Assembly (NCBI GenBank): GCA_013334575.1
Contig: JAAXXG010000002.1
Location: 69,377 to 133,376 of the forward strand
Source of the DNA: Candidatus Moraniibacteriota bacterium
GTDB lineage: Bacteria > Patescibacteriota > Minisyncoccia > Moranbacterales > UBA1568
Reading direction: 5' to 3'
DNA length: 64,000 nucleotides
Both the position numbers and the translations under genes were made by a program. Shown piece by piece: positions 4,910 through 54,816 of this stretch (within the stretch, counting starts at the first letter, position 1; every line of letters begins with the position of its first letter). The notes below the pieces were generated by a model, which was given only the letters and a program-made list of their open reading frames with translations, searched no databases and was not told the DNA's origin.

Positions 4910-5725
4910 TCAGACCTGCAGCGTCCACGGCGACGTCGCGAGCAGGAGCGCGATAAGCAGGAACGACAGGCCGAGGTACCAGAGTGTCCGCTTCCGGGAA
5001 ATGTCTCCGGAAAACAGCGAGTTCGCCATGTCCCAAAGGATATAGAACGCCAGCAGCGACGCGGCTCCGGTCACGAGGTACCCGAACGGCCAAAAAGACA
5101 CGATCCAGGCGATTTCGCCGATTCCGAAAGCGATGATCGAGGAATAAAGCGCCACCCGACTCCGGTCTCCGGGAAGCGAAAGGGAGAGCGTCTGATAGGC
5201 AGCGCCGAACGAACCCAGCGCGAACGAGACGACGAGCGATGCGAGCGGGACGGCAAAGTTCAGATAAAACCCGAAGGCTGCCGCGAAAAAGAAGAACAAG
5301 GCGGACAGCATCGAGACCGCGAGAAAGGTCGCCGCGGTACGGTCCTTGGGCGCGAACCGCATACGGTAGAGCCCCAGGAACGCGACGTAATAGACGCCGG
5401 TCGCGATAACGGAGAATGCGAGTTTCTCCGACGGATCGTCGACGAGCGACAGGAGCGACGGGGCCGAGAACGATATAAGCAGCGGAACGAAGCCGTTCCG
5501 ATACCGTTTCGTTATCCTTTTCGCCGATACGAGCGACAGGACCGAGAGGAACAGGATCGAAAAGACGTATCCGACCCAGAACGAATCGTATTCCCGCGCC
5601 GCAACGAACTGCATTCCGAGGAAGAACGCGACCGACCAGAAAAAGACGGTGAAGTGGAAAATCATATCGTTTCGGAGATATCGGTAGCGTAGCAGGGAGC
5701 CATGAAGGAAGCAAGCCGATAACAA
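4910..5725 (-). CDS. polytopic integral membrane protein, unknown function
   Basis: 271-aa ORF with about 7 hydrophobic helices. No recognisable motifs. Confidence 0.45.
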   Translation of the reverse strand: MLSACFLHGSLLRYRYLRNDMIFHFTVFFWSVAFFLGMQFVAAREYDSFWVGYVFSILFLSVLSLVSAKRITKRYRNGFVPLLISFSAPSLLSLVDDPSEKLAFSVIATGVYYVAFLGLYRMRFAPKDRTAATFLAVSMLSALFFFFAAAFGFYLNFAVPLASLVVSFALGSFGAAYQTLSLSLPGDRSRVALYSSIIAFGIGEIAWIVSFWPFGYLVTGAASLLAFYILWDMANSLFSGDISRKRTLWYLGLSFLLIALLLATSPWTLQV

Positions 5726-5834
5726 TAGATCGAATCGAACACGGCAAACAAAACGGCGTCATCAGGGCATAACAAAAGGCTCATGCGACCGAAGTCACAT
5801 GAGCCAACACCTATTCGGTATCTTCTCTTCGTCA

Positions 5835-6662
5835 TCAGGCGAATGCCTTCTTTATCCCCCGCACCTCCCTCAGAAGATCTTTCCTTTCCGGAAGAAATCG
5901 TCGGATAACATTCTCGGCATCGGAAAGATAGAGGTTTTCGATATTCATACGTACCACCTCGATGACGACATCGGGGTGATTCGCGCCCAGAGCTGCGGCC
6001 TGATCGTAATGCCGATCGTACAAGAGCTTCCGTAAGTAGACGCGAATATATGCCTCATTCGGCTCGTCATATTCTCTCGCAAGTTCGATCTTCCGCACCA
6101 AGCCGACTTCCTCGTCACGCAACACCTCCTTTGCCAGCTCACGTTTCTGATCCTCGGTAATCGTGAACTTCGTACTCTTCCGAAGAGGATCCCAGTAAGA
6201 ATCCGCCTGAAGAAGGTTTTTATATATCAGTTTCTCGATATCGATGCGGACTTTCGCATCACTGATATATTTTCCGACCCAGTCGAGTTCCGCCGGTGTT
6301 ACGATCATACGTCTCCGTCTCCGTTCTTCGCAGAAATCCCGGAAGCTTTCGAACATTTCCCCATCATTCGTTAAAGATAGGGCATCGGGGCAAAGCGCAA
6401 TGATACTATCCAGCACCTCCAGCTTTTGAAACTCAAAAGCCCCCTTTCTCGAAACGATATACAGGAACGCTTCCTTGGTCAGTTCCCGAAGTTTGCCTCC
6501 GCTCAGGTCATTCTTAAGTACCTTTAAGCGAATCCACGGGTTACGAACGTTTTCGATCAGTGACATGATTCCCCCTTGCGATTTGAGTCCGTCGACTTGT
6601 TTGTTGGCAAAGAAAAGCCCTTGACGGCTTACTACTTTCATGAGCAGCATTCCCGATGCCAT
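5835..6662 (-). CDS. hypothetical protein
   Basis: 275-aa ORF with coding-like composition. Preceded by an AT-rich intergenic region 6663-6860. Confidence 0.4.
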   Translation of the reverse strand: MASGMLLMKVVSRQGLFFANKQVDGLKSQGGIMSLIENVRNPWIRLKVLKNDLSGGKLRELTKEAFLYIVSRKGAFEFQKLEVLDSIIALCPDALSLTNDGEMFESFRDFCEERRRRRMIVTPAELDWVGKYISDAKVRIDIEKLIYKNLLQADSYWDPLRKSTKFTITEDQKRELAKEVLRDEEVGLVRKIELAREYDEPNEAYIRVYLRKLLYDRHYDQAAALGANHPDVVIEVVRMNIENLYLSDAENVIRRFLPERKDLLREVRGIKKAFA

Positions 6663-6857
6663 AAATTCTGATATCGCAAATACTGCCCAAGAAATAACAG
6701 GACAATCTTAACGAACAAGATAAATATTTTAGCATTATTTATAATTTTAGTCAATTACTTGCACATTCATAGAAAAATCAGGGCTTGTACAAGCCCTGAT
6801 TTTTCAGAAAGCGCATTTCGGAAAAATTGCCGCTGTACACCAACCGACAACAATCAT

Positions 6858-9503
6858 TTATTTATCTGCTGTTTTCTGTCTCTTCTTCGCCGCCCCGAAC
6901 GAGAACCCTTCCTTTCCGGCATCCACCTCGATGCCCGCGGCCGGAACCTTCCCTTCGATGACCTCGAGCGCCAGCGGGTCGAGGATATCGCCCTGAATCA
7001 CGCGTCGCAGCGGCCGCGCCCCATAGAACGGGTCGAACCCCTTCTCGGCAAGACGCTTGCGGGCCGCATCCGTGAACGTGACGGCGATCTCCTTCGCAGC
7101 GAGCCGTTCGGCCACCTTCGCGAGCTCGAGATCCACGATCTTCCGGATGATATCGCGTCCGAGCGGATGGAAGATGACGATCTCATCGATACGGTTGAGG
7201 AACTCCGGACGGAAGGTTTCCCGGAGGCTCGACATCACCTTGGTACGGATCGCCTCCTCGGAAAGCTCCTCCTCTCCCTTCTTCGGTTTCTCCTCGCTGA
7301 ACCCGAGCCGCTCCGCCCTCGTAAGGGTCTCGGACCCGACATTCGACGTCATGATGATGACCGTATTCTTGAACGATACCGTCCGCCCCTTCGCATCGGT
7401 CAGTCGTCCGTCGTCGAGGATCTGCAGCAGGATATTGAACACGTCGGGATGCGCCTTCTCGATCTCGTCGAAGAGGATCACGGCATACGGCCGGCGGCGG
7501 ACCTTCTCGGTGAGCTGCCCGCCCTCGTCGTAACCGACGTATCCCGGCGGCGACCCGATGAGCTTCGCGGTCGAATGGGATTCCATGTACTCGCTCATGT
7601 CCACGCGCACGAGCGCCCGCTCGTCGTCGAACAGGAATCCGGCAAGCGCCTTCGCGAGTTCGGTCTTACCGACGCCCGTCGTGCCCAGAAAGATGAAGGA
7701 GCCGATGGGGCGCCCCTCCTCGGAAAGTCCGGCCCGAGACCGACGAATGGCGTTCGAAACCGCCTGGATCGCCTCGTCCTGCCCCACGACACGTCTCTCG
7801 AGTTCCCGCTCCATATGAACGAGCTTCTTCGCCTCGGTCTCGAGCATCTTGGAGACGGGAACGCCGGTCCACTTGGATACGACCGCCGCGACGTCTTCCT
7901 CGGTGATCTCCTCCTTGAGGATGGAGCCCGCCTGCTGAAGCTTCGTCAGTTTCTTCTCCTCGGCCGCGAGCGCCTTCTGGATCTCGGGAATCTTCCCGTA
8001 CCGGATCTCGGCGACGCGGTCGAGTTCCCCGCGTCGCTCGGCCATATCGGCTTCCGATTTCAGCCGATCGATATCGGCCTTGTGCGCCCGCAGGCCCGCG
8101 ATCAGATTCCGCTCCCCCTTCCACTGGAGCGAGAGCTTACCCGACTTCTCGCGCAGGTCCGCAAGTTCGCGGTCGAGTTCCGCGACCTTCTTCCCGGACT
8201 TCTCGTCCGAGTCCTTTTCGAGAGCGCGCTTCTCGATCTCCATCCGGCGGATGTTCCGTTCAAGCGTATCGAGTTCGGTCGGCAGCGAATCGATCTCCAT
8301 GCGGCGCAGCGATGCGGCCTCGTCCACGAGGTCGATCGCCTTGTCCGGCAGGAACCGATCGGAAATATACCGCCGGGAAAGCCGCACCGCCGCGACGATC
8401 GCGTCGTCCGTAATGCGGACCCCATGATGCAACTCGTACTTCTCCTTGATGCCGCGCAGGATCGCGATCGCGTCCTCCTCGGACGGTTCGGATACGAAGA
8501 CCGGCTGAAACCGCCGCTCGAACGCCGCGTCCTTCTCGATGTATTTCTGGTATTCCTTGAGGGTCGTGGCGCCGATCGTCCGCAGCTTTCCGCGAGCCAA
8601 AGCGGGTTTGAGCATGTTCGACGCGTCGAGCGTGCCCTCGGTCGCGCCCGCTCCGACGAGCGTATGGATCTCGTCGATGAACAGGATGAACCGGTCGGCG
8701 GAGCGTTCCACCTCCTTCAGGACCGCCTTCAGGCGCTCCTCAAACTCGCCGCGGAACTTAGCACCCGCCAGAAGCGCCCCGAGGTCGAGCGAGATGATCT
8801 CGCGGCCCGTGAGATTCTCCGGCACGTCGCCCGAGACGATCCGCTGCGCGAGCCCCTCGGCGATCGCCGTCTTGCCGGTCCCGGCCTCACCGATCAGGAC
8901 CGGATTGTTCTTCGTCCGGCGCGACAGGACCTGCATCACCCGGCGGATCTCCTCGTCGCGGCCGATAACCGGATCGAGTTTCTCCTCGCGAGCGAGCTTG
9001 GTCAGGTTCACCGCATACTTGTCGAGCGCCTGATACGACGCTTCCGGATTGTCGCTCTCGACACGCGCACCGCCGCGTATTCCCGAGAGCGCCCGGAGAA
9101 CCTTGTCCCGGTCGGCACCGGAACGTTCCAATATCTTTTTCGCCTCGCTCTCGACCGACAGGAGTCCGAGCAGCAGGTGCTCGGTCGAGACGAACGAGTC
9201 TCCCATCGCTTTCATCTCCTTCTCGGCCGCATCGAAGGTCTTCGCGAGCGCCGGCGTAAGATAGAGTTGCGGACCGGTCGACCCCTTCGGGAACGCATCG
9301 ATCACCGAAAGCGTCGCGCCCTTGAGCGCGGAGAGGTCCGCTCCGGCCTGCGAGAGCGCGACCGGAACGACCGAATCCTCCTGAAGGAGAAGCGCGTAGA
9401 GCAGGTGCTCCGGACGAAACTCGGCGTTCCCCCGCGAAAGCGCGTTCTCCTGCGCGTTACGCAGCGCCTCCTGGCTCTTCTGCGTGAAATTGCTGATATT
9501 CAT
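6858..9503 (-). CDS. clpB: ATP-dependent chaperone ClpB
   Basis: 881 aa. Clp N-domain, two AAA+ modules ([25 protein letters not shown]) and a long middle coiled-coil typical of ClpB. Confidence 0.9.
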
Positions 9504-9617
9504 AGCCGTGAAGAATCAAGGATTACGAACCGGGAACGAAAGCCTCCATTCCGTATGATTCTCGCTTCCCTTTTTCCCGATCCTTCTTCGGCTCCATTCT
9601 ATACCGAAAAACAAAAA

Positions 9618-9644
9618 TTAGCAATCTCATATAGAGAGTGCTAA
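9618..9644 (-). promoter_or_regulatory. CIRCE-like inverted repeat (HrcA operator) upstream of clpB
   Basis: TTAGCAATC-N9-GAGTGCTAA about 115 bp upstream of the clpB start. One mismatch to the CIRCE consensus TTAGCACTC-N9-GAGTGCTAA. Confidence 0.7.
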
Positions 9645-9850
9645 TCCCGTCAATCCGATCTGCGCGATACATTTTACGGAAATTTACTTTCCCAAGCGAT
9701 TCTTCTGCCTGAATTTCCGCCCCATATCCTCACGTTCTATATTTCCAAAATCGAACGGATGTCTCGTATCGAACGATTCTTGACAGGCGAAGCAGGATGG
9801 CCGAGGATGCGAATGAACGTCTTCGCTCACCTTAAAAACAAGGAGTCCTT

Positions 9851-10300
9851 ATGCTGACACCGGTTAACTTCCAGAATGATCCGCTTCGTCACGCGAAACG
9901 GAGTCTCAGGCTGATTTCCGTTCTGCTTCTCATTCCGATTCTCATTCCAGCCATCTGTTGGATGCTCCCAAAAGGGGCACAGCGTTCCATATCGGCATCC
10001 GCCGATAGATTGGCCTCGTTTCTCGACGGAAATGAGTATCTGATGTATGAAATAACCGCCACTTTCCTGCTTTTCGTTTTCGTTTTCTTCGCCTTACGCA
10101 TCGTCACCGAACTCATCACGACCATCTCCCGCCATTTACTTGAAAGATTCCGCAACGAAACGACCGAGGGCAGGATATTCCGCTTTCATCCCGTACTCAC
10201 GCTCACCTTGACGTTCCTCGCGACCATTTTTTTTCTTTTCACGGAATGGGGGCGGAACTCCATCCTGTTCCTTGCTAACATACTCTTTCTCTCGAACTAG
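9851..10300 (+). CDS. hypothetical small membrane protein
   Basis: AAGGAG about 7 nt upstream of the ATG. 149 aa with 3-4 hydrophobic segments. Confidence 0.4.
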   Translation: MLTPVNFQNDPLRHAKRSLRLISVLLLIPILIPAICWMLPKGAQRSISASADRLASFLDGNEYLMYEITATFLLFVFVFFALRIVTELITTISRHLLERFRNETTEGRIFRFHPVLTLTLTFLATIFFLFTEWGRNSILFLANILFLSN

Positions 10301-10363
10301 CGAGCCGAAAGAACAAAAAAAGGCATGTAACCATGCCTTTTTTTATTTTCGAATCCGTATCCG

Positions 10364-11629
10364 TCACTCCTTCCGCAGGGCTTCCATCGGAGAAAGACGG
10401 GAAGCGCGAACCGCGGGAGAGAGCCCGAACAGGACTCCTACCGCGACCGAGAACCCCGCCCCGAGCAGGAGCGAACGCGGTGTGAGTACAAGCGGAACGG
10501 AAAAGCCCGCGCGACCGAGGGCGAGCGACGACGCCCAGGTGAACGCGACACCGAGTGCGATACCGATAAGACCGCCGAGCCCCGTCACGATGACCGCCTC
10601 GACAAGAAACTGCGACAGGACGTCCCGTGATTTCGCACCGACCGCCTTGCGCAAGCCGATTTCGCCCGTACGCTCGGCAACTGAAACGTACATGACGTTC
10701 ATGATACCGACCCCCCCGACGATGAGCGAGATGGACGTGAGCGCGACCAGGAGGATCGAGATGGTCCCGACCACGTCGCCGAGGGTCTTCTGCGCCTCCT
10801 TGGTCGACGTCACCGCGAAATCGTCCCGCGATGGATCCTCGATATCGTGCTCCTTCCGAAGAAGCCGCGTGATGAGATCCACCGTCTCCTCCTCCCGTCC
10901 CGGGTCCTCCATGCGGACCGAGATCATCTGCACATAGTCGACACCGAGCAGCTTCTTCTGCAACGTCCGAATCGGAACGTATGCCATGGCGTCGAGGTCA
11001 AAGAAGGCGGCCGAGCCGCGTTTCCCGAGCGTGCCGATCACCCGGTACCGCTCTCCGGAAATCGTGACAGACTCCCCGACCGCGTCGCGGTCCCCGAAGA
11101 ACGACCGCTTCACCCCGTATCCGAGGACGATGACCCTGGAAAGGCTCTCATCCTCCTCGGACGAATAGAACCGACCGCTCTCGAGCTTCAGGTTGGAATC
11201 GACGAGCGGCGCACCGGCGCCGGCGCCGAACAGCATGACCCGTTTTCCGACGGAACCATAGGTAGCCCGTTCCTGCGCGATACTGCCGGCGTACGAAGCC
11301 AGGACGTTCGGTAGCCGATCGACCCGTTCCTCGTCGTCGAGCGTCAGCGTGGTTATCTGAATACCCTGCGCAATACCGCCGGAGTTTTCCGTCGAGGTCT
11401 TGCCGGTATTAGGCACCTTGACCTCGATCTGGATCAGGTCCGTCCCAAATGTCTCGACCAGGCCGGTGACATACCCCTTCACCCCGTCGCCGAGCGACAT
11501 GATCACGACTACCGCGAAGACACCGACGACCACGCCAAGCAGTGCGAGCGCGGTCCGCGCCTTGTGCGTACGGATGGTCCGGACCGCGAAGAGCACCGGA
11601 CGGAAAAAGGTGGATCGGAAGAGAGACAT
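10364..11629 (-). CDS. ABC transporter permease, MacB/FtsX family
   Basis: 421 aa. N-terminal TM helix, large extracytoplasmic domain and a C-terminal FtsX-like 3-TM bundle. Paralogous to 14954..16195. Confidence 0.8.
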   Translation of the reverse strand: MSLFRSTFFRPVLFAVRTIRTHKARTALALLGVVVGVFAVVVIMSLGDGVKGYVTGLVETFGTDLIQIEVKVPNTGKTSTENSGGIAQGIQITTLTLDDEERVDRLPNVLASYAGSIAQERATYGSVGKRVMLFGAGAGAPLVDSNLKLESGRFYSSEEDESLSRVIVLGYGVKRSFFGDRDAVGESVTISGERYRVIGTLGKRGSAAFFDLDAMAYVPIRTLQKKLLGVDYVQMISVRMEDPGREEETVDLITRLLRKEHDIEDPSRDDFAVTSTKEAQKTLGDVVGTISILLVALTSISLIVGGVGIMNVMYVSVAERTGEIGLRKAVGAKSRDVLSQFLVEAVIVTGLGGLIGIALGVAFTWASSLALGRAGFSVPLVLTPRSLLLGAGFSVAVGVLFGLSPAVRASRLSPMEALRKE

Positions 11630-16390: not shown

Positions 16391-17113
16391 TTATTTCAAC
16401 GTCACCTCGCCGTCCCGGGCGATACGGCGGTTCGTAACCGGCTCGTCGCCGACGATGCGCCCGTCCGCGACACGGAGGATGCGCTTGGCATGCTCCGCGG
16501 TCAGCGTCTCGTGCGTCACGAGGATGACCGTCCGCCCCGCATCATTGAGCTGCTGAAGGATCTTCATGACCTGGAGCCCCGACTTCGAATCGAGGTTTCC
16601 AGTCGGCTCGTCCGCGAAGACGATGTCCGGATCGTTCACGAGCGCGCGGGCGATCGCTACACGCTGCTTCTCGCCACCGGAAAGCTGTCCGGAAAAGTAC
16701 TTCGCCCGGTGGGTCATGCCGACTGCCTCGAGTGCCGCCGCGACGCGCTTCCCGTTCCGCTCGGTCGGATCCTCGTCGTAGAGAAGCGGCAACTCGACGT
16801 TCTCCTCGACCGTCGTCTTGGGCAGCAGGTTGAACGCCTGGAACACGAACCCGATCCGTCGGTTCCGGAGTCCCGCGAGCTCGTCGTCGGAAAGCTCGGT
16901 CGCGTTGCGGCCGTCGAGCAGGTAGGTCCCGCAGTCCGACCGTTCGAGCAGTCCCAGGATGTGCATAAGGGTCGACTTGCCCGAGCCCGAGGGTCCCATG
17001 ATCGCGACGAACTCCCCTTTCTCCACGGAGAACGACACGTCATGAAGCACGGAGGTCCGGACACCTTCGTTCTCGTACGTCTTGCAGAGATCCTTCACGG
17101 AGATGAGAGGCAT
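16391..17113 (-). CDS. ABC transporter ATP-binding protein (MacB/LolD-type)
   Basis: Walker [10 protein letters not shown], signature [15 protein letters not shown], Walker [13 protein letters not shown]. 240 aa. Confidence 0.85.
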
Positions 17114-17283
17114 GTCCGAAATAAAGCGTTATCGTTACCATTGTAACACAAATCCTTTCCAATGAACCGGAATGGACCAAGATCTCCGAGTCCGACCGAG
17201 AATCGTGTTTTTTCGATTTCACGAAAAAAACATAGCTCAATAAAGCCATGATTTCAGCCATTATTTCATTTCGACCCTATCCC

Positions 17284-17340
17284 ATTCTCCGCGATATTTC
17301 CGTCGAGGAACCGGGCGGTCGTATTCCTGATGTTCCCACT
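17284..17340 (-). pseudogene. duplicated fragment of the 3' end of nucleotidyltransferase gene 17873..18373
   Basis: About 90% identical to 17884..17940, which encodes the C-terminus EHQEYDRRFLDGYIANL, and carries a 1-nt indel. Lies downstream of the intervening 126-aa ORF. Confidence 0.5.
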
Positions 17341-17392
17341 CAAGCGGTTCTGATTAGCAAAAGATCCGCAAGTGATCTTTTGCTTGCGGATC

Positions 17393-17773
17393 TTATATCA
17401 CCGGAACCGATGGTGACGGATTCGATTCCCGCCACTCCTTAACACACTGCTCCACCGCGTCTTCATGATGCCGAACAGTCACGCTCACGTCTCCGATTTT
17501 CAGTACTTGTATTTTCATTACTTCTAAATATAATTGTCCCCCTTTCTCGACATGAAAAATATTATTTCCTAGCAAGTCGTCGGGTTTTTCCGTACAGATG
17601 ATAGTCGGAACGTCGATTATGCGGAAACACGCTCTTCCTCTAATTTTTCCGACATACGGCCCGATAAGCTCGCCGGATTCCCCTGGCTTGATGACGACAT
17701 CCGGTCCGTATTCGCAATCATGTACTGTCGCGTATGCGATCACGTTAAACGACGTTGCGTTGATAATTTTCAT
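17393..17773 (-). CDS. hypothetical protein (lower-GC ORF between direct repeats)
   Basis: 126-aa ORF, noticeably AT-richer than its flanks. Bounded by the two copies of the nucleotidyltransferase 3'-end repeat. Confidence 0.45.
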   Translation of the reverse strand: MKIINATSFNVIAYATVHDCEYGPDVVIKPGESGELIGPYVGKIRGRACFRIIDVPTIICTEKPDDLLGNNIFHVEKGGQLYLEVMKIQVLKIGDVSVTVRHHEDAVEQCVKEWRESNPSPSVPVI

Positions 17774-17872
17774 CCTACACCTCGGATTTATTTTTTGATG
17801 GATTATGCTGAAAAACTACAACCGATGAGAATACTGCCGTTTGAAAATATTGTCAACATCGGCAATATGTTC

Positions 17873-18373
17873 TCATCCTTTCCTCAAATTGGCGATATAT
17901 CCGTCAAGAAACCGGCGGTCGTATTCCTGATGTTCCCCGTCGAGGTGTTCCTTGTACTCGCGCAGCACCCGAGGGTCCATGAGCATGACAGAGACATTGT
18001 CGATCTCCATCCTCACGTCCGGATATCGGCCGTAGATCTCCCGGTTCCGGATCCACACCGCCCCGCCCTTGTCGCGCATGAGAAGCGTATCGGCGTCGGT
18101 CAGGTCGATGTCCTGTCCGTGATACGAGAGCGAGAGCGTCTCACAGTCCCACTTCTCGGTCAGATAGTGCTTCGGTCCCGCGACGATATACTCCTTCACA
18201 AGCGGGACGATGACCGGAAAAACCTTGCCGGAAATCGAGATGTCGATATCGTTCACCGGACGACCGGAACCGTAGAGCGCGGTCGCGAGTCCCCCGCCGA
18301 TCTGATACGGCACTCCGACCCCGTCGAGCACCCCGACAATCCATTTCATTGCATTGATGGTTTTCGTGATCAC
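17873..18373 (-). CDS. small nucleotidyltransferase, Lnu(A)/ANT-like family
   Basis: GGGLATALYGSGRPVNDIDISI matches the GG-x-G-x(n)-DIDI nucleotidyltransferase motif. 166 aa, similar in size to Lnu(A)-type enzymes (161 aa). Confidence 0.5.
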   Translation of the reverse strand: MITKTINAMKWIVGVLDGVGVPYQIGGGLATALYGSGRPVNDIDISISGKVFPVIVPLVKEYIVAGPKHYLTEKWDCETLSLSYHGQDIDLTDADTLLMRDKGGAVWIRNREIYGRYPDVRMEIDNVSVMLMDPRVLREYKEHLDGEHQEYDRRFLDGYIANLRKG

Positions 18374-18428: not shown

Positions 18429-19181
18429 TCACAAGACAGACACCCTTCCCAACAGCGGTCTCATGTAGTGATCAAACTTTCCCGGTCCGGACACCAGGAA
18501 TTCGCTGACGGACCCCTTCGGCAGATAGATGAGCGATCCGAATTCGGGAACCTCCCCCTTCTCGATCAGTTCCTCTTCAAACCGGGCATAATGCTCGGCA
18601 AATTCCGCCGCAGTCAACCGAAGCTTCAGCAAGAAAATCACCGCGATCGAATGGATGCCCGAATCATAACGAAGATACCCGGCATCAAGCCGCAGAACAG
18701 CCTTTCGGTCCTCGGACTCGATCCCGACTTCCTCCCGAAGCTCCCTCCCGATACCGTGTTTCATGTCGATTGCGTTTTCCCGAACATCTTCGAAGTCCAG
18801 ACCTCCGCCTACGCACTGGATATTTCCGGGATCGGACGTATGCTCGGCCATCCTGCCGAAAACGAGCACGTCATCCGCTGCCTCAATCAGACACGACGTA
18901 TGGATATTCTTGCAGGCGTACTTTTCAGGAAGCCCTACCCTCCTGGTATAGACATAGTGGGCATAATCCGAAAGATCGACAGCCACTCTCACCTCGCCGC
19001 CACGCTCTTCTATGCCCGAGATGGTAAAGACCTCGCCGCGAGTATACCGTTTCCCCTCCGCCATCAGTCCGTTCCAATACTCGTCGACCGCCTTTTGCGT
19101 CTCTGCCGGCAACATGAACCGATTCCCGGTATATGTCACGATCGGCTCGGACTTCAGTTCCAGAAGCGTATCTGACAGCAT
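18429..19181 (-). CDS. NUDIX-like hydrolase
   Basis: Nudix-box-like GGGLDFEDVRENAIDMKHGIGRELREEVGIE with the REx2EE core. Confidence 0.5.
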   Translation of the reverse strand: MLSDTLLELKSEPIVTYTGNRFMLPAETQKAVDEYWNGLMAEGKRYTRGEVFTISGIEERGGEVRVAVDLSDYAHYVYTRRVGLPEKYACKNIHTSCLIEAADDVLVFGRMAEHTSDPGNIQCVGGGLDFEDVRENAIDMKHGIGRELREEVGIESEDRKAVLRLDAGYLRYDSGIHSIAVIFLLKLRLTAAEFAEHYARFEEELIEKGEVPEFGSLIYLPKGSVSEFLVSGPGKFDHYMRPLLGRVSVL

Positions 19182-20057: not shown

Positions 20058-20092
20058 ACACCGAAAACCCGCTTGTAAAGCGGGTTTCGCGA
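20058..20092 (-). terminator. intrinsic terminator downstream of 20169..20795
   Basis: Hairpin aaacccgcttgtaaagcgggttt, followed on the minus strand by TTTTCGG. The same stem recurs at 21352. Confidence 0.5.
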
Positions 20093-20168
20093 TTTCATCG
20101 AAAAAATGAGGCTTATATAAGCGACTAAGTAATTAGTTTTCGGATTTCAAATAATAAGGAATACCGAA

Positions 20169-21397: not shown

Positions 21398-21757
21398 CTA
21401 TTCCTCGCGCTTGCCGGTATTCTCAAACGGATCCATCGCTTTCCGGACTTGCTCGACTTCCTTCTCCGCTGCCAACCGGTCGAGTCTCGGTTTCATGATT
21501 TCCTCTTCAAGAGGCGAACCCGGAAACTCGACGGTCTCACGGATTATTTCCTGGTCCGCAGCATCATCCCTTCGTTCCTCCTCGTACTGCTGCTGATATT
21601 TCTCGTCACTTTCCCGCATAAGCGCTTGCAAACGCTCCTCATCCGGGAGCGGTGCCCGATTCGCATTCTTGAACTCGATATCGGCCGCTATCAAAGCGGC
21701 CTCGTCATCCGGATCCGGCTCCTGGACCGGATATGTGAACTTCTCTTTCATATTCAC
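21398..21757 (-). CDS. hypothetical acidic protein
   Basis: 119-aa ORF with high Glu/Asp content. No motifs. Confidence 0.35.
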   Translation of the reverse strand: MNMKEKFTYPVQEPDPDDEAALIAADIEFKNANRAPLPDEERLQALMRESDEKYQQQYEEERRDDAADQEIIRETVEFPGSPLEEEIMKPRLDRLAAEKEVEQVRKAMDPFENTGKREE

Positions 21758-35500: not shown

Positions 35501-36098
35501 TCCGGTCCGAGACCTCGAGACGCTGCCTGACGGCGCCCAGGTCCGCATAGGCGGCGTGGTCGCGACGGTCCGCAAGATCCTCTCCAAGAACGGACAGCCG
35601 ATGTTCTTCGTCGGGGTCGAGGACCTCACCGGCCGGATCGAGGTCGTCGTCTTCCCCCGGGTCGCCGCCGAGACCGAATCGCTCTGGGTCGAGGACAGCC
35701 TCGTCATCGTGGACGGGAAGGTGAACCGCAAGGACGGTATGACCAAGGTCATGGCCGATACCGGCAGCCGCCTTGACGAGACGGAGATAGCCCGATACCG
35801 TTCGATCAAGCTCACGAGGAAGCGCCACGAACGCCCGAGGGCGGAATCTTCCGCGACCGGTCAGGAGAAGGCCGCCACGCCTCCGGAACGTCGCTACACG
35901 CTCGTCCTCGACGAGGCATCGGCATCGGAAGCGCTCAACCGTCTCTCCGAGGAGCTCGGCCGACTCCCGAAAGGCGAGGACCGCATCTTCCTCCGAGTCG
36001 CCGGAAAACTGATCCGGACCGCCTACGCCGTAACGCTCGACGACGCGGCAAAGGACCGCCTCGCCCGGATTCCCGGAGCGCGGAGTGCCGAAGGATAG
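32541..36098 (+). CDS. dnaE: DNA polymerase III alpha subunit
   Basis: PHP domain N-terminus (HLHVRSHYSLL), polymerase core and OB fold. 1185 aa from MSDFVHLH. Confidence 0.9.
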   Translation: MSDFVHLHVRSHYSLLNALPKIEGLIAEAKKYGMDALALTDTSNMYGAVEFYVRCKDAGLKAIIGTELHVVKDHTSRTPSADDRPRNTIVLLATNETGYHNLLELVSKAQLDGFYYKARVDKNLLRQHHEGLIALSGNMTGEIPANLIYDNYEAAKAAAIDYRDIFGEDNFFLELGPNIEYESQATVNAGLRQIHEETGIPLVAASDVTYLRPEDRDTHDILLCIQNNWTVAQENRPRMTHLDLSFRSPEEMEILFRDYPDAIANTRRIADRCDLKIKLGETQLPHFDVPEGLTADSYLRQLCEEGLVKRYGTTDVDQTHRQRLDYELDVIEKTGFASYFLIVADFVNWAKKNGVVVGPGRGSAAGSFVAYLTEITNIDPIKYDLLFERFLNPERISMPDVDMDFADDRRDAVLEYVRQRYGRDHVAQIITFGTMAAKAAIRDTGRALGFPYAFCDQISKLIPMFTSLSKAVEEVPDLKALYDGNPDARRIIDTAKKLEGNARHASVHACGVVITKDPVTAYSPLQKVAGHGDAAVTQYASQSKLSAVEKIGLLKMDFLGLKNLTIIQNTVRIIRALGKFPDLAERLGIDPEKGSAADVMDRIPLDDEATYRLLQEARTTGVFQLESNGMKRYLKQLKPTVFEDIVAMVALYRPGPMEWIPDFIDGKHGRKVVEYLHPKLEPILRNTYGVAVYQEQVMQIARDLAGFTLGEADVLRKAMGKKIKELIAEQREKFIERAVQEGVQKKIAEQVFAFIEPFAGYGFNRSHAACYALVGYQTAFLKAHYPAEFMAALLTSDQNDTDRIAIEVEETRQIGVEVLPPDVNESFEDFAVIKGDDEKERIRFGLNAIKNVGRPAAEEIVRVRKQDGPFASMEDLLERVRVKDLNKKSLEALSKVGALDRFGERNLLLENLDAIISFAKNIDKIKDTHQDSLFGGMTLEKPVIRFTPPGRPATKKERLSWEKQLIGLYITDHPVSDYEDYLREIARPVRDLETLPDGAQVRIGGVVATVRKILSKNGQPMFFVGVEDLTGRIEVVVFPRVAAETESLWVEDSLVIVDGKVNRKDGMTKVMADTGSRLDETEIARYRSIKLTRKRHERPRAESSATGQEKAATPPERRYTLVLDEASASEALNRLSEELGRLPKGEDRIFLRVAGKLIRTAYAVTLDDAAKDRLARIPGARSAEG

Positions 36099-36123
36099 GC
36101 CGCCGGAAACGCAAGACGAACCT

Positions 36124-37050
36124 ATGGAAACGATCGTCGTGGTCGGACCGACCGCGTCGGGAAAATCCGACTATGCCATCTCGCTCGCGCGCGAGACCGG
36201 CGGAGAGATCGTCTCCGCCGATTCGCGGCAGGTCTACCGCGGGATGAATATCGGCACCGGGAAGGTTCCCAGAGATACGTTCAATGTAGAGACGGGGCAT
36301 ACCCCGTCTCTACGGAATGACATTTCGTATATCTCCGGCGGTATCCGGCATCACCTTCTCGACGTCGCCTCGCCGAAACGGACCTATACCGTCACGCATT
36401 TCCTCCGTGATGCCAGGGCGGCGATCGACGACATACGGAAACGCGGCAAAACGCCCATCATCTGCGGCGGGACGAACTTCTGGATAGAGGCGCTCGTCTC
36501 CGATACCTCGTTTCCCGCGGTCAGACCCGATCCGCCCCTCCGAAAAACGCTCGGCCGACTCACCGCGCCCGAACTCTTCACGATGCTCGAGGAAAAGGAC
36601 CCCGACCGCGCGAAGACGATCGACCGTCACAATAAGGTCCGGCTCATCCGGGCACTCGAGATCGTCGCGACGCTCGGTAAAGTACCGACAAGCGGAACAA
36701 GGACTCAAGAATCAGGAATGAAGCGGGATGAGAAATTCCGATTCATCGGAGTCGATATCTCACGAGAACAGTTACGTGAAAATATCGTGAGACGACTCGA
36801 TAAGCGGCTCCGGGAAGGGATGGTCGACGAAGTACGACGGCTCCGCGAGGAAGAAGGAATCTCCTGGAAGCGCCTCGAGGGATTTGGACTCGAGTACCGC
36901 TGGTGCGCGCTGTTCCTTCAAGGAAAGATAACGGAAACGGAACTGCGCGACGGTATCACCCGCGACAGCCTCTCCTACGCCAAGCGGCAAATGACGTTTC
37001 TTCGGAAACTGGAACGAAACGGGATACGGATAGAATGGAGGAGAATTTGA
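36124..37050 (+). CDS. miaA: tRNA dimethylallyltransferase
   Basis: P-loop GPTASGKS, DSRQVYRGMNIGTGK and HHLLD motifs. Contains a 28-nt palindromic element in-frame at 36286-36313. Confidence 0.85.
   Translation: METIVVVGPTASGKSDYAISLARETGGEIVSADSRQVYRGMNIGTGKVPRDTFNVETGHTPSLRNDISYISGGIRHHLLDVASPKRTYTVTHFLRDARAAIDDIRKRGKTPIICGGTNFWIEALVSDTSFPAVRPDPPLRKTLGRLTAPELFTMLEEKDPDRAKTIDRHNKVRLIRALEIVATLGKVPTSGTRTQESGMKRDEKFRFIGVDISREQLRENIVRRLDKRLREGMVDEVRRLREEEGISWKRLEGFGLEYRWCALFLQGKITETELRDGITRDSLSYAKRQMTFLRKLERNGIRIEWRRI
36286..36313. repeat. perfect 28-nt palindromic element (REP-like), copy 1, inside the miaA coding sequence
   Basis: gtagagacggggcataccccgtctctac is translated in frame as VETGHTPSL. 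Confidence 0.75.
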
Positions 37051-37100: not shown

Positions 37101-37632
37101 GATTTATCGGATTCTCCTCATCCGTATCCCATTCCCGAGGATTGATACGGATATATTCCTGGATCAACCGTAGAGACTCCTCGTTCCGGATAATATGATC
37201 ATGGAATCGCGATTGCCATGAGAATCCGGATTCGGCATGCGACGCCCGGATTCTTTTCGTACAAACAGATTTGAACGACCCGACAATCGTCGCCAAAGTC
37301 GGTCGTTTTCGTGGTTCACTGTTTTCCGTAGAGACGGGGCATGCCCCGTCTCTACACGGAAGGATCTCGATGATTCCGTGAACATGATTCGGCATTACAA
37401 CAAATTCATCCGTTCGGATATCTCGAAAATGGTCCGGGATACTACCCCAGCAATCCCGGACGATTTCCCCGATTCCGGATAATGTCATCTCCCCGTTTTC
37501 GATATCGCCGAACCAGAGACACCGATCCGCGGCACAGATGGTCACGAAATATGCGCCAGGTTGGGAATAATCATATCCGGGTAAGCGTGATGATCGAATC
37601 CTGTATTTGCCTTTGTAGTTATCCGCTACCAT
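37093..37632 (-). CDS. REP-associated tyrosine transposase (RAYT, IS200/Y1 family)
   Basis: YRIRSSRLPGYDYSQPGAYFVTICAADR; HuH motif VVMPNHVHGIIEI; C-terminal WQSRFHDHIIRNEESLRLIQEYIRINPREW. Flanked by REP-like hairpins. Confidence 0.75.
   Translation of the reverse strand: MVADNYKGKYRIRSSRLPGYDYSQPGAYFVTICAADRCLWFGDIENGEMTLSGIGEIVRDCWGSIPDHFRDIRTDEFVVMPNHVHGIIEILPCRDGACPVSTENSEPRKRPTLATIVGSFKSVCTKRIRASHAESGFSWQSRFHDHIIRNEESLRLIQEYIRINPREWDTDEENPINQT
37327..37354. repeat. 28-nt palindromic element, copy 2, inside the RAYT coding sequence
   Basis: gtagagacggggcatgccccgtctctac, read on the minus strand as CRDGACPVST. Confidence 0.75.
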
Positions 37633-43767: not shown

Positions 43768-43914
43768 TCCGGCAACCGATTATCCGAAACCCTTCGTCAG
43801 CGCACGGAGGGTTTCAATTTTCAATACCTTCCAACCCGTTACGAACCAGAGCGTCTTTTTTTTCCGCTTTGACGTCTCGGGATAAAACCTGCAACACCGC
43901 CCGAATCGTCACGA

Positions 43915-44015
43915 GACGACAGCGGGAAGGTTTTTTCGTTTCAAGCCCCTCCTTTCCGATTTCATCAAAAAAATGAGGCTCATATAAGCCTCATTATTTG
44001 ATCGTTTCGGATTTC
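43915..44015. repeat. intergenic repeat element A (about 100 nt, terminator-containing)
   Basis: Near-identical to B at 44677..44774. Contains a hairpin aatgaggctcatataagcctcatt with an A-run before and a T-rich run after, acting as a bidirectional terminator. Confidence 0.7.
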
Positions 44016-44132
44016 TGACAAAATGAAAGCGTTTGCCTCAGGCAACACCCGGAATTTTGACAGCACCGAAAGAACCCTATAACATGCCAAAAAAAGCCCT
44101 TTCCCATCAACCGAACGATTCCCGGAGGCAAC

Positions 44133-44624
44133 ATGCGAACGCAACGAAGCTATTATCTCGCCGCATTTCTTGGCGCGCTATATGCGCCGATTCTCGGGAC
44201 GGTCTACCCGGACGCCTTGTCGATCGAAGTACCGCTTAGTGTATCCGTAACAGTTGCGGCCGTCTTTATACTGGTCTTCTCCACGCTCCTTCGAAGAAAC
44301 GGTTTCCGCTCCGCGCTTGGGGTAGCGGGTTACCAACTGGCATACCTGACAACTCTACTGTCGCTCGCGGTACAATATCTTAAACATGGAACCGGAGCAG
44401 TCGCTCCCGCCTTCTTCGGAACATTCGCCCATTCTTCCGTTACTGTTCTTTCCTCGATTCAAGACGAGAAATTCCTACTGGTATTTATCTGGACGGCTGT
44501 CGCCATGAACAATGCCATGGTGTACCTTCATCCGCCAATCCACGTATTGTGGACCGTCGCCCTCATGTTCTACGTCCTCTACGGACTGTCCGAGGAGCCC
44601 GAGACGATCGCTCCGGAATCGTAG
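44133..44624 (+). CDS. small integral membrane protein
   Basis: 163 aa with 5 hydrophobic helices. Flanked by repeats A and B. Confidence 0.45.
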   Translation: MRTQRSYYLAAFLGALYAPILGTVYPDALSIEVPLSVSVTVAAVFILVFSTLLRRNGFRSALGVAGYQLAYLTTLLSLAVQYLKHGTGAVAPAFFGTFAHSSVTVLSSIQDEKFLLVFIWTAVAMNNAMVYLHPPIHVLWTVALMFYVLYGLSEEPETIAPES

Positions 44625-44676
44625 GGCCTGTGCCGAATCAAGAATGAAGCCTCCCCGCTCGAATCATCGCAAGATG

Positions 44677-44774
44677 ACGACGGGGAGGTTTTTTCGTTTC
44701 AAACCCCTCCTTTCCGATTTCATCAAAAAAATGAGGCTCATATAAGCCTCATTATTTGATCGTTTCGGATTTCG
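44677..44774. repeat. intergenic repeat element B
   Basis: Same element as A, with an additional upstream stem cctccccg ... cggggagg followed by TTTTTT. Confidence 0.7.
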
Positions 44775-44864
44775 GGCAAAATCTGAACCTATGAACGTCC
44801 CTCGTGATCCGGTAAGAAAGAAGCCCGTGTTCTTGGAACACGGGCCTCGAAAAGAACATACCTG

Positions 44865-48019: not shown

Positions 48020-48182
48020 GTTCGTCCCCTGTTTTCGTTGAGTGAATATACTATTTGTTAAACAAAACGGATCCTACAGTGCAGGATCTCGTGCCATTCC
48101 GATATACCAGGAAACGACTCGTATAGCAAGCGGATAATGACATTTACGACTTCAAACCGTCTTTTGGCCACAATCTTCCCAG

Positions 48183-48238
48183 TTTCACCAAAAAAATGAG
48201 GCTCATATAAGCCTCGTTATTTGATCGTTTCCGATTTC
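48183..48238. repeat. intergenic repeat element C (core of the A/B family)
   Basis: tttcaccaaaaaaatgaggctcatataagcctcgttatttgatcgtttccgatttc. Confidence 0.65.
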
Positions 48239-48284
48239 GGGCAGAACCGGGCAGATTCTGGAAACGTTACATAATCTGACGACC

Positions 48285-48401
48285 GCATTATTTTGTAACG
48301 TTTTCTGAGCGATGGATGGAAACGACTTGGTAGATGATTGTGTCGATCGCGGTCACGGTCAGCACCGGCATATCGTCTTCCGTCGCACGGATGAGGTTCA
48401 T
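48285..48401 (-). pseudogene. detached 5' fragment of the GNAT acetyltransferase gene (copy X)
   Basis: rc encodes MNLIRATEDDMPVLTVTAID ...; the first ~50 nt match the start of 50113..50574. Confidence 0.5.
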
Positions 48402-48556
48402 AGCGACCCAGCTCTTCAGGATCGTATCAGGCCCCTTTTCCGATTCCAGATAGCGTTTCGTTCCGTCAATTATTTTTTTCCACGCGAGCGGAATGTTTTT
48501 TTATCTAAAAAAAGCAGGTCCCACATTCGTGAGACCTGCTAAATACTCTCCTTTCA

Positions 48557-50112: not shown

Positions 50113-50574
50113 TTATATAGAATCGTCTCTTTCTTTCGTGTCACACTCCCTCGTCATGATGATCCGAGGCTGTCCGTCGCCGTAGAGATTATCCTCCCGA
50201 CCGGAAGCGACGAAGCCGAGCGACTCATAGAGCTTCACGGCGTGATTGTCCGGGTGAACGTCGAGGCTCACGCGGTCGAATTCCCGCAATTCCTCGAGCA
50301 GCATTCCCATAGCCTTTCGGGCCAATCCCCTCCGTTGGAACTCGGGCGCGATAATAAGTCCGCTCACGTAGGCATAATCGGTATCCTTCACCCGGTAGGA
50401 GATATCCCCGACGATCACTCCGTCCTCCTCGATCAGATAGACAGTCTCGTCGCGGATCCACTGCCGCATCTCCTCGTCGGTGAAACCCCAGTTGTAGACA
50501 ATCAGATCCCTCGCGGTCTCCTCGATCGCGGTCAGTACCGGCATATCGTCTTCCGTCGCACGGATGAGTTTCAT
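50113..50574 (-). CDS. GNAT family N-acetyltransferase
   Basis: MKLIRATEDDMPVL start, acetyl-CoA motif RRGLARKAMGMLLEEL. 153 aa. Confidence 0.75.
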   Translation of the reverse strand: MKLIRATEDDMPVLTAIEETARDLIVYNWGFTDEEMRQWIRDETVYLIEEDGVIVGDISYRVKDTDYAYVSGLIIAPEFQRRGLARKAMGMLLEELREFDRVSLDVHPDNHAVKLYESLGFVASGREDNLYGDGQPRIIMTRECDTKERDDSI

Positions 50575-50745
50575 AAGATCACATATCATTCATGATCGTA
50601 TTCCTCTCCTGTTTTGATAGACTATCAACAAAAATATCGCCTTTCCAAGCCATAAAATGACACTTGATTTATCTAAGATTTTATGATATCATAAAACGTT
50701 GTGCCTTCATAATCTATAAGCATACTCTCGAGGAGGAGAGTCATC

Positions 50746-51292: not shown

Positions 51293-51390
51293 GCGATCAT
51301 GACCATTGCATTGAATTTGCCGTCCTTCTCGGTCTCCTCGATCGCAGTCAGCACCGGCATATCGTCTTCCGTCGCGCGGATCAAGTTCAT
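51293..51390 (-). pseudogene. detached 5' fragment of the GNAT acetyltransferase gene (copy Z)
   Basis: rc encodes MNLIRATEDDMPVLTAIEETEKDG... then a stop after 32 codons. About 90% identical over ~60 nt to the start of 50113..50574. Confidence 0.5.
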
Positions 51391-51394
51391 AGGA

Positions 51395-53703: not shown

Positions 53704-53927
53704 AGGAGTCTTCGGTTATGGGGATCTGCCGACTCCCTCCGGCACCCATTGTACGGGAAAGGCCGATAAAAAGGAACCTTGGCAGAATTCCATCCCCGTG
53801 TCATCCCGAGCGCAGTCGAGGGATCCACGGATATATCAGGACCAGAGTCGATTCTCCTGGCAGATTCCTCCACTCGAAGACTCTCCGGCATTCGCCGGAC
53901 TCCGGGTCGGAATGACAAGACAAAAAA

Positions 53928-53993
53928 ACAGGCCCCGAGAAGGGCCTGCTTCTGCATTTCGTGCTGTCGGAAACTAGGAGAGCTTCACCGTGA
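53928..53993 (-). repeat. 66-nt direct repeat: duplicate of the rplA 3' end plus its terminator hairpin
   Basis: About 92% identical to 54751..54816. Includes rc ...VKLS* and the aggccc ... gggcct hairpin with a T-run. Confidence 0.65.
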
Positions 53994-54111: not shown

Positions 54112-54540
54112 TCAGGAGATGTTCCCCCGAATCCCATATACCGCTCGCGTGATGCTCAAGAGAATAAGGAACGCGAGCGCCAGCAGCACCGAGTGGGCCG
54201 TCATCGCCCCTCTCCAGTCAGTGAAGGAGTAGACGCCTGAAATCGCACAAGCGATCAATCCAAACGCCATGTTCGCCGTAAACAGGATGACGAGTCCGGT
54301 TAAAACCTGCGGTACCGAAATGGTCCTTGATGACTCGGGTAGGACCACATACCCGGCGAGCGCAAAGACGAAACATACACCCGCGTACTGAACGAGTGGC
54401 CGATGAAACAACGGCAACCCGATCCCATGCATCCACAGCAGGAAAGCCGTGATAGTCAGTGCTGCAAAAAACGCGGACAGAAAGAAAAACATCCCCGAAA
54501 GCCTTACTCTTTGTGGTAAGACGAACGCAAAATGATTCAT
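54112..54540 (-). CDS. small integral membrane protein
   Basis: AAGGGGG RBS. 4 hydrophobic helices. Lies between the two rplA-3'-end repeats. Confidence 0.45.
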   Translation of the reverse strand: MNHFAFVLPQRVRLSGMFFFLSAFFAALTITAFLLWMHGIGLPLFHRPLVQYAGVCFVFALAGYVVLPESSRTISVPQVLTGLVILFTANMAFGLIACAISGVYSFTDWRGAMTAHSVLLALAFLILLSITRAVYGIRGNIS

Positions 54541-54750
54541 GGTATCCCCCTTTAGCACTTCGTGCCTTAATTTATAGAGTTATTAAACACGAAATGACTC
54601 TAGCATTAAATCCATATAATGTCAAGTCTCTTCACATCAACACAGAAGTCATCTTCTTGTCGTCCAAGCGAGGGCAGGGCCTTTCCGTGCCGAGTAGAAG
54701 ATTCCCGCCTTCGCGGGAATGACCGATAGAGAAGGCTCGACGATACGAAA

Positions 54751-54816
54751 ACAGGCCCCGGGAAGGGCCTGTTTCGGCATTTCGTGCCGTCAGAAACTAG
54801 GAGAGCTTCACCGTGA
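54751..54816 (-). repeat. 66-nt direct repeat (true rplA 3' end and terminator)
   Basis: Overlaps the last codons and stop of rplA. Hairpin aggcccttcccggggcct followed by GTTTTCG. Confidence 0.65.

Follow-up and report, generated by a model that had tools for sequence, protein, structure and literature searches.

In a stretch of 64,000 nucleotides from Candidatus Moraniibacteriota bacterium (assembly GCA_013334575.1, contig JAAXXG010000002.1, positions 69,377 to 133,376), from here on called the window, a putative nucleotidyltransferase (NTase) gene ends in about 60 nt that are found a second time, frameshifted, 600 nt further downstream; the two copies enclose a segment of 541 nt with one open reading frame (ORF) for a protein of 126 amino acids, named ORF126. 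Our analysis supports the reading that an insertion within the 3′ end of this gene duplicated about 60 nt of the target, supplied a stop preceded by six new codons, and displaced the original end. The same scar recurs at targets unrelated to this one.

The repeat pair

Sequence reading, a repeat finder and local alignment agree on a pair of direct repeats (17291-17350 and 17892-17950) that match in 51 of 60 alignment columns, which corresponds to 85% identity across the 60 nt and 91.5% across the best 47 nt. The lower copy has one additional base at position 17313. A block of 24 nt (GGCGGTCGTATTCCTGATGTTCCC) is perfect in both copies, at 17314-17337 and 17914-17937, with a spacing of exactly 600 nt. 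Self-BLAST of the window returned the pair with E = 1.7e-10, and the repeats are therefore not a product of chance. The upper copy, read on the minus strand, is the genuine end of the ORF at 17873-18373 (..EHLDGEHQEYDRRFLDGYIANLRKG, then stop); the lower copy reads ..EPLEWEHQEYDR and then shifts frame into FLDGNIAENGIGSK, followed by a stop. The features of the target and its two ends are:

17873..18373, minus strand: target gene, putative NTase of 166 amino acids, intact (from the ORF list)
17892..17950, minus strand: repeat copy 1, the in-frame functional NTase end (..EHLDGEHQEYDRRFLDGYIA), with 1 private change relative to the outgroups
17291..17350, minus strand: repeat copy 2, the displaced, frameshifted NTase end, with the extra base 17313 and about 10 private changes
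17914..17937: 24-nt block, upper, identical to 17314-17337, spanning the conserved GEHQExDR motif; P(run >= 24) = 0.064
17314..17337: 24-nt block, lower, identical to 17914-17937
17873..17891, minus strand: new NTase tail and stop (..NLRKG-stop), left end of the inserted DNA, GC 0.40, unlike the tails of relatives
17266..17290, minus strand: old tail (..ENGIGSK-stop), contiguous with copy 2 and nearer to the ..SNGL-stop tails of relatives
17221..17250, minus strand: terminator-like hairpin and T-run 3′ of the old tail, likely to be the original terminator of the NTase gene

The 541 nt between the copies (17351-17891), which carry ORF126, are richer in AT than their surroundings. The GC content is 0.462 in ORF126 and 0.448 in the 600-nt unit as compared with 0.582 in the window, and the GC content at third codon positions (GC3) is 0.50 in ORF126, as against 0.75 for NTase and 0.85 for the adjoining ABC ATPase gene.

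An initial annotation, made from the letters alone, had already described a repeat pair, a 1-nt indel breaking the frame of one copy, and an AT-richer segment of about 540 bp with a 126-residue ORF at 17393-17773. All three observations were borne out by the approaches named above. The limits that it gave for the repeats (17284-17340 and 17884-17940) denote the same feature and need correction by a few bases at either edge; the outermost 7 nt (17284-17290 and 17884-17890) are dissimilar.

Three assemblies made independently from this Candidatus Moranbacteria population show the repeats and ORF126 in the same arrangement. The locus is 100% identical to the window in a Logan contig of SRR11449211 and 99.1% identical in one of SRR11449212, with 13 single-nucleotide polymorphisms (SNPs), none of them within the repeats. 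The bases that distinguish the two copies immediately flank the 24-nt block on both sides, so that 26-mers would separate both configurations. We do not think that assembly collapse or chimerism explains the repeat structure.

The insert and ORF126

The insert encodes ORF126 only. Its features, in the order in which they are read, are:

17828..17856, minus strand: promoter-like site TTGACA-17-TATTCT 5′ of ORF126, matching at 10/12 positions; a consensus match only
17778..17783, minus strand: Shine-Dalgarno sequence GAGGTG, 4 nt before the ATG of ORF126, read from the sequence
17393..17773, minus strand: ORF126 (126 amino acids), cargo gene, belonging to an uncharacterised family centred on a domain of about 105 residues
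17356..17394, minus strand: intrinsic-terminator-like hairpin of ORF126, a 12-bp stem followed by UUUUGCU; -28.8 kcal/mol, z = -3.9

The terminator-like hairpin overlaps the ORF126 stop codon. With a promoter-like site, a Shine-Dalgarno sequence and a terminator of its own, ORF126 forms a transcription unit that is complete in itself.

When 5.8 billion proteins were searched by word index, ORF126 retrieved only itself. An exhaustive HMMER search yielded 50 remote homologues at E <= 1e-3, the best of them 51% identical, and their alignment reveals a shared domain of about 105 residues with the motifs MKVTNxTSF, GYGxDVxIxPGE, GPYLGEMG, IxCHExPD and GVTVRHH. With this alignment AlphaFold (AF2) modelled the protein confidently (pLDDT, the predicted local distance difference test, 87.8) as beta-rich, with a helix at the C-terminus; the model from the single sequence was useless (pLDDT 38). 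On the basis of these roughly 50 homologues and the confident model, ORF126 is a real gene. Its product is small and, by prediction, beta-rich, and it has conserved Cys and His residues, including Cys60 and His102, and no long hydrophobic stretch. By exact look-ups and homology searches ORF126 itself was found only in this population.

As to function, the initial annotation had pointed to toxin/immunity and small-cassette families. ORF126 has no match in Pfam, PHROGs, PADLOC and NCBIfam, and none in phage and plasmid collections; a sequence search of the PDB was empty, Foldseek found nothing significant for the model in the PDB and in BFVD (viral models), and the genes around the homologues differ from place to place, no partner gene recurring among them. 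The results lend no support to ORF126 being a toxin or an immunity protein, and the hint in that direction is not sustained.

The target gene and its relatives

The NTase has more than 200 homologues of about 165 amino acids, widespread in Patescibacteria. Its sole Pfam match is a weak one (PF10706, Aminoglyc_resit, 17.8 bits as compared with a cut-off of 21), and a sequence search among solved structures found no relative. A homology search gave a 100% match of the window NTase to a protein of a GenBank metagenome-assembled genome (MAG) of Candidatus Moranbacteria; an exact look-up of the product gave no record. The nearest other lineage has at most 81% protein identity, and its intergenic DNA does not align.

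The identity of the NTase to its relatives is uniform right up to the repeat, so that the gene body is native up to that point. The notion that the 3′ third of the gene could be foreign was rejected for the same reason.

The closest lineages keep the gene order abhydrolase, NTase, slot, ABC ATPase, MacB, and the content of the slot between NTase and ABC ATPase varies (L and P numbers denote the loci compared):

L007: empty (471 nt)
L008, L009 and L062: a gene for 117 amino acids
L010: an EEP-family nuclease
P0004 contig: a gene for 198 amino acids
L003: Fic/RhuM and further genes

A profile search found no gene of the ORF126 family near any other NTase locus. The conserved synteny with a variable slot, together with the low GC and GC3 of the insert and of the new tail, supports the reading that the window arrangement arose by insertion and is not the ancestral state.

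Which of the two copies is the old end follows from several comparisons. The displaced tail (..IAENGI..) resembles the ..IASNGL-stop of the relatives better than the current tail (..IANLRKG-stop) does; by our count on the alignment, 14 of 24 nt of the displaced tail and 9 of 24 nt of the current one match the tail of L003. The current tail is AT-rich like the insert and has no similarity to the tails of relatives. The hairpin stretch after the displaced end is weakly collinear with the DNA downstream of the NTase genes of L003, L004 and L007 (z about 2; equally high scores were reached by 8-17 of 200 shuffles). The native gene body, the likeness of the displaced tail to the old tails and the hairpin following the remnant together identify the displaced copy as the old end. 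The proposal of the initial annotation that an insertion restored an open NTase end and displaced the old one is thus supported by synteny, the native body, tail likeness and the downstream hairpin.

In an alignment polarised with the nearest outgroups (L003, L005 and L007), six derived bases are common to both copies in the window. Beyond these, the functional copy has 1 private change, and the displaced copy about 10 plus the indel. The six shared derived bases indicate that both copies come from one lineage and that neither is a foreign mimic of the target brought in as attP.

Between abhydrolase and NTase the window has a lineage-specific ORF of 250 amino acids (18429-19181, minus strand) that is weakly NUDIX-like; in the relatives with an abhydrolase homologue (L003-L005 and L007) abhydrolase and NTase abut. 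The 117-residue slot gene of L008 (6578-6931), L009 and L062 ends in ..NTGKREE. An ORF of 119 amino acids in the window (21398-21757, minus strand), located between CYTH and HlyD-like genes, resembles this slot gene by eye; were it a true homologue, small genes would change position between lineages.

In L003, the closest relative, the genes around and after the NTase (5085-10890), which include Fic/RhuM, a 123-residue ORF and GATase_4, are separated by six copies of a module of 34-80 nt, consisting of a terminator hairpin (AAACCCGC..GCGGGTTTTTT) followed by GGTGGGAGAA (terminator-Shine-Dalgarno). There is also an exact repeat of 46 nt. The organisation is cassette-array-like.

The same scar at unrelated targets

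Within the 64 kb of the window there are three scars of this build, and at least two further ones were seen in other lineages of the candidate phyla radiation (CPR); each brackets a single gene. The second in the window is at rplA, where the last 20 nt of the gene and its terminator, together 69 nt, are repeated 823 nt downstream with 93% identity. Three strain contigs, found via the neighbouring dcd gene and 98.9-99.8% identical, have this insertion. The third concerns an intergenic module of two hairpins. In both of these other window cases, too, the cargo has a TTGACA-17 promoter-like site. In L015, from Kaiserbacteria, the NTase gene is itself the insert and is bracketed by a repeat of the 3′ end of the upstream glycosyltransferase family 4 (GT4) gene, the new tail being SDNVN-stop and the displaced old tail TS-stop followed by a hairpin. 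In L039 it is the 5′ end of the NTase gene that is duplicated, on both sides of a gene for an S-adenosylmethionine (SAM)-methyltransferase of 268 amino acids; the insertion thus lies at the other end of the same gene family. The positions are:

53925-53993 and 54748-54816: rplA repeat, about 120 nt with gaps
54112-54558, minus strand: cargo at rplA, a membrane ORF of 142/148 amino acids with its own TTGACA-17-TAGAGT site and its own terminator
43897-44027 and 44655-44787: repeat of the intergenic two-hairpin module, 128 nt, 91% identical
44133-44624, plus strand: cargo of the intergenic module, a membrane ORF of 163 amino acids with a TTGACA-17-TAACAT site
L015, 3938-3978 and 4518-4558: GT4 3′-end repeat, 41 nt, 95% identical
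L039, 2903-3010 and 3977-4084: repeat of the NTase 5′ end, 108 nt, 98% identical

With target sequences as different as these, one site-specific system cannot explain the scars.

A dispersed intergenic element of 72 nt, centred on the hairpin GAGGCTCATATAAGCCTC, is present in four copies in the window (20085-20156, 43952-44023, 44710-44781 and 48175-48246; chance expectation 0.02). Hairpins related to it are found 3′ of the NTase in L003 and L007, and a degenerate one at 17231-17250 after the displaced end.

Proposed course of the insertion

We favour a homology-assisted, non-site-specific recombination event, a proposal to which we give an even chance of being right. In the ancestor of the population an autonomous unit of 541 nt (promoter-like site, Shine-Dalgarno sequence, ORF126 and terminator) would have entered the NTase gene within its last codons, duplicating about 60 nt of the target on its way in. 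Copy 1 would have stayed with the NTase body and acquired the six codons and the stop supplied by the insert, so that the gene remained open. Copy 2, with the original tail and its terminator-like hairpin, would have been displaced 600 nt downstream, where it decayed by a frameshift and about 10 substitutions.

As to enzymology and donor, we infer that the ends were joined by the cell's own recombination or replication machinery without a site-specific integrase encoded by the element, and that the DNA stemmed from this lineage or a close relative. Possible routes would be a one-ended homologous pairing with an illegitimate second join, as in homology-facilitated illegitimate recombination (HFIR), a Campbell-type entry of a small circle carrying a segment of the target, or a template switch. 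Two features that homology-assisted insertion leads one to expect are found: the duplicated segment is from the same lineage (six shared derived bases; native NTase body), and there is no sequence specificity, the targets ranging from the rplA end and the intergenic module in the window to the 3′ end of GT4 in L015 and the 5′ end of the NTase gene in L039.

Later the insert would have spread among co-occurring strains via homologous recombination in the flanking genes. The 13 SNPs of the strain variant L002 (SRR11449212) across window positions 16826-18323 are unevenly distributed: 9 fall in 299 nt of the NTase gene (18303-18025) and 3 in 160 nt of the ABC gene, with 1 in the central 1039 nt, where the insert lies (Poisson P about 0.001, our calculation). 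This pattern suggests recent spread or exchange of the insert-bearing kilobase between strains by homologous recombination. Patescibacteria carry genes for homologous recombination and competence (PMC12455944), and the window has pilin-like genes at 62-64 kb.

A number of points weigh against this account. Neither an empty site nor a donor came to light in look-ups and homology searches, and the junctions are therefore not reconstructable base by base. The similarity of the DNA 3′ of the remnant to that of relatives is weak (z about 2), and the hairpin there belongs to a dispersed family. The NUDIX-like ORF at 18429-19181 is without flanking repeats, from which it follows that the scar is not universal. 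The first 15 nt of the remnant are strongly diverged (10/15 identical), which would also fit an att arm derived from an element. Replacement of a gene's 3′ end by way of direct repeats of 40-130 nt is a typical outcome of integrase-mediated integration, and an integrase could be encoded outside the 64-kb window.

Alternative explanations

These last points lead to the explanation that the initial annotation had put forward, namely site-specific integration. The unit would then be a miniature or decayed integrative element whose attP mimics the NTase 3′ end and whose recombinase acts in trans or has been deleted, resembling a cis-mobilizable element (CIME) or the microcin H47 island. The anatomy is indeed like that of attL and attR, with an identical 24-nt block, imperfect arms, the 5′ arm of the remnant strongly diverged, and a gene end supplied by the element, following the logic of e14 at icd (PMC6379469). 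Integrase-less islands with imperfect direct repeats are known to be mobile through host functions (PMC3191183). What stands of this claim is the replacement of the gene end. An integrase system does not find support: the unit encodes no recombinase, and four Pfam batches covering most window genes, about 40 proteins, revealed none of the tyrosine or serine type, the only match to a mobile element being a weak one to Y1_Tnp 20 kb from the insert. Among the other NTase loci of the genome and metagenome collections, about 75 had a gene end that could be scanned, and in none of these is it duplicated; the 24-nt core is absent from viral contigs. Nor is this core statistically distinct. Given 9 differences in 60 columns, a perfect run of 24 nt is not significant against random placement (P = 0.064), and the block overlaps the most conserved motif of the NTase family; we also saw no obvious dyad symmetry when reading the sequence. 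The core was therefore rejected as a crossover signature. Finally, the two copies have lineage-specific derived bases in common, and scars at unrelated targets would require several different specificities. We consider integrase-mediated integration unlikely.

Other classes of mobile DNA do not fit either. The junctions have no GTTRRRY core in the sequence, the Pfam scans of the window found no integron integrase, and the terminator hairpin is a simple one with a 12-bp stem. Inverted repeats at the ends and a transposase, as in insertion sequences (ISs), miniature inverted-repeat transposable elements (MITEs) and transposons, are missing from the insert, and the duplication has 60 nt. Overall the insert does not match the profile of integrase-borne elements, integron cassettes or IS/MITEs.

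Replicative template switching, similar to fork stalling and template switching (FoSTeS) or microhomology-mediated break-induced replication (MMBIR), would have a nascent strand leave the NTase end, copy the ORF126 unit from another template and re-enter about 60 nt upstream of the point of exit. This would account for duplications of variable length (41-128 nt) at arbitrary targets as well as for an intact target gene with two copies from the same lineage, and the present data do not separate it from the recombination model that we favour. No source copy of the ORF126 unit was found, however, in the window or the databases searched, and FoSTeS/MMBIR has been documented mainly in eukaryotes and in stressed Escherichia coli. 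We regard it as improbable, a little more so than integration by an integrase.

In a third explanation the remnant goes back to a tandem NTase paralogue, an ancestral order NTase-ORF126-NTase′ having suffered a deletion that left the last 67 nt of NTase′. The remnant is indeed a frameshifted gene end, and paralogue remnants do occur in the window (three GNAT N-termini, see below). Against this, no second copy of the gene end was seen in any relative in which that end could be scanned. Nearly all loci give one NTase match, the exceptions being L039, with its 108-nt duplication of the 5′ end, and L054/L081. The analogous case at rplA would require a duplicated ribosomal protein gene, the remnant begins exactly where the ORF126 terminator ends, and the shared derived bases imply a recent common origin of the copies. 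A paralogue remnant is very improbable.

That two strain variants were chimerically joined via the shared 24-mer is scarcely credible: mixed-strain metagenome assemblies can misjoin at short repeats, and the co-occurring strains are here 98.9-99.8% identical, but the same path is present in three independent assemblies, the bases flanking the 24-mer are resolvable by k-mers of 26 or more, and the copies differ by 15%.

Other features of the window

A perfect palindrome of 28 nt, GTAGAGACGGGGCAT(A/G)CCCCGTCTCTAC, is present at 36286-36313 and 37328-37355, in frame within two coding ORFs. The first host is an ORF of 321 amino acids (36085-37050), putatively miaA-like, and the second a 179-residue IS200/Y1-transposase-like gene with a weak PF01797 match. 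The palindrome looks similar to repetitive extragenic palindromes (REPs) or to Rickettsia palindromic elements (RPEs) and would lie beside a possible REP-associated tyrosine transposase (RAYT).

A sequence coding for the N-terminus MxLIRATEDDMPVLT is present in three copies that are 74-88% identical (48334-48405, 50507-50578 and 51323-51394). The middle copy starts the ORF of a GNAT acetyltransferase (50113-50589, Pfam), and the other two look like starts or remnants of paralogues.

No RNA family scored above threshold in the window. A match to CRISPR-DR22 at 17209-17244 (23 bits; gathering score 50) was dismissed as chance.

Significance

Patescibacteria (CPR) have tiny genomes and yet many genes that apparently were transferred individually (PMC12455944). 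It is conceivable, though we doubt it more than we believe it, that these organisms gain autonomous single-gene units through a general process, independent of integrases, which places them at or just inside gene ends and copies 40-130 nt of the target. If so, the target gene would be rebuilt and a decaying pseudo-end left behind, and the NTase/ORF126 locus would be one instance of a process that builds the variable slots for accessory genes in these genomes. Alternatively, a host recombinase of relaxed specificity may make such insertions.

The scar marks the point of insertion, reveals the old end and recurs at unrelated genes, and thus provides a concrete, countable signature of gene gain. 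It could be searched for across thousands of MAGs, whereby gene-gain events could be measured and their mechanism inferred. For annotation it flags pseudo-ends and replaced C-termini that are overlooked by gene callers. ORF126, in turn, defines an uncharacterised protein family with a confidently predicted fold that is unmatched among the solved and viral structures searched.

Comparison with known systems

The insert is like an integron cassette in being a single-ORF unit of about 0.5-1 kb in a variable slot (compare the accessory array of L003). It differs in that no attC-like GTTRRRY palindrome, IntI or attI was found in the DNA examined, that the unit has its own promoter-like site, and that the repeats are copies of the target rather than of a site borne by a cassette.

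Closer in anatomy are e14 and phage 21 at icd of E. coli, in which the insert supplies a replacement 3′ end, the target stays functional, and a displaced pseudo-end lies on the far side, the ends being imperfect direct repeats (PMC6379469). However, e14 is a multi-gene defective prophage integrated site-specifically at a fixed attB (PMC6379469), whereas our insert has 541 nt and one gene, no integrase was found for it, its site is not reused in about 75 loci, and its two copies are from the same lineage.

The genomic island of microcin H47 shares with our insert att-like imperfect direct repeats and the lack of an own recombinase (PMC3191183, PMC5426353), so that in both cases any mobility must depend on host functions. 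Unlike our insert the island has 13 kb, its att sites are widespread among strains, and its excision and integration were experimentally shown (PMC3191183, PMC5426353). The insert described here is a single gene at a unique site. Streptococcal CIMEs, too, are segments with att-like imperfect direct repeats and without an own recombinase.

HFIR has been discussed in PMC6382021. In HFIR and in Campbell-type insertion during natural transformation, foreign or variant DNA is trapped beside a homology without an enzyme encoded by the element, and in a Campbell-type entry by single crossover the homologous segment is duplicated on both sides of the insert, as it is here. These processes were defined in the laboratory, whereas the scar at the NTase gene is natural and apparently recurrent, with a single gene each time. 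To our knowledge natural single-gene insertions with duplications of 40-130 nt that spare the target have not been described as a recurrent pattern. Among the systems compared, the insert is closest to the single-crossover or homology-facilitated illegitimate insertion defined in the laboratory.

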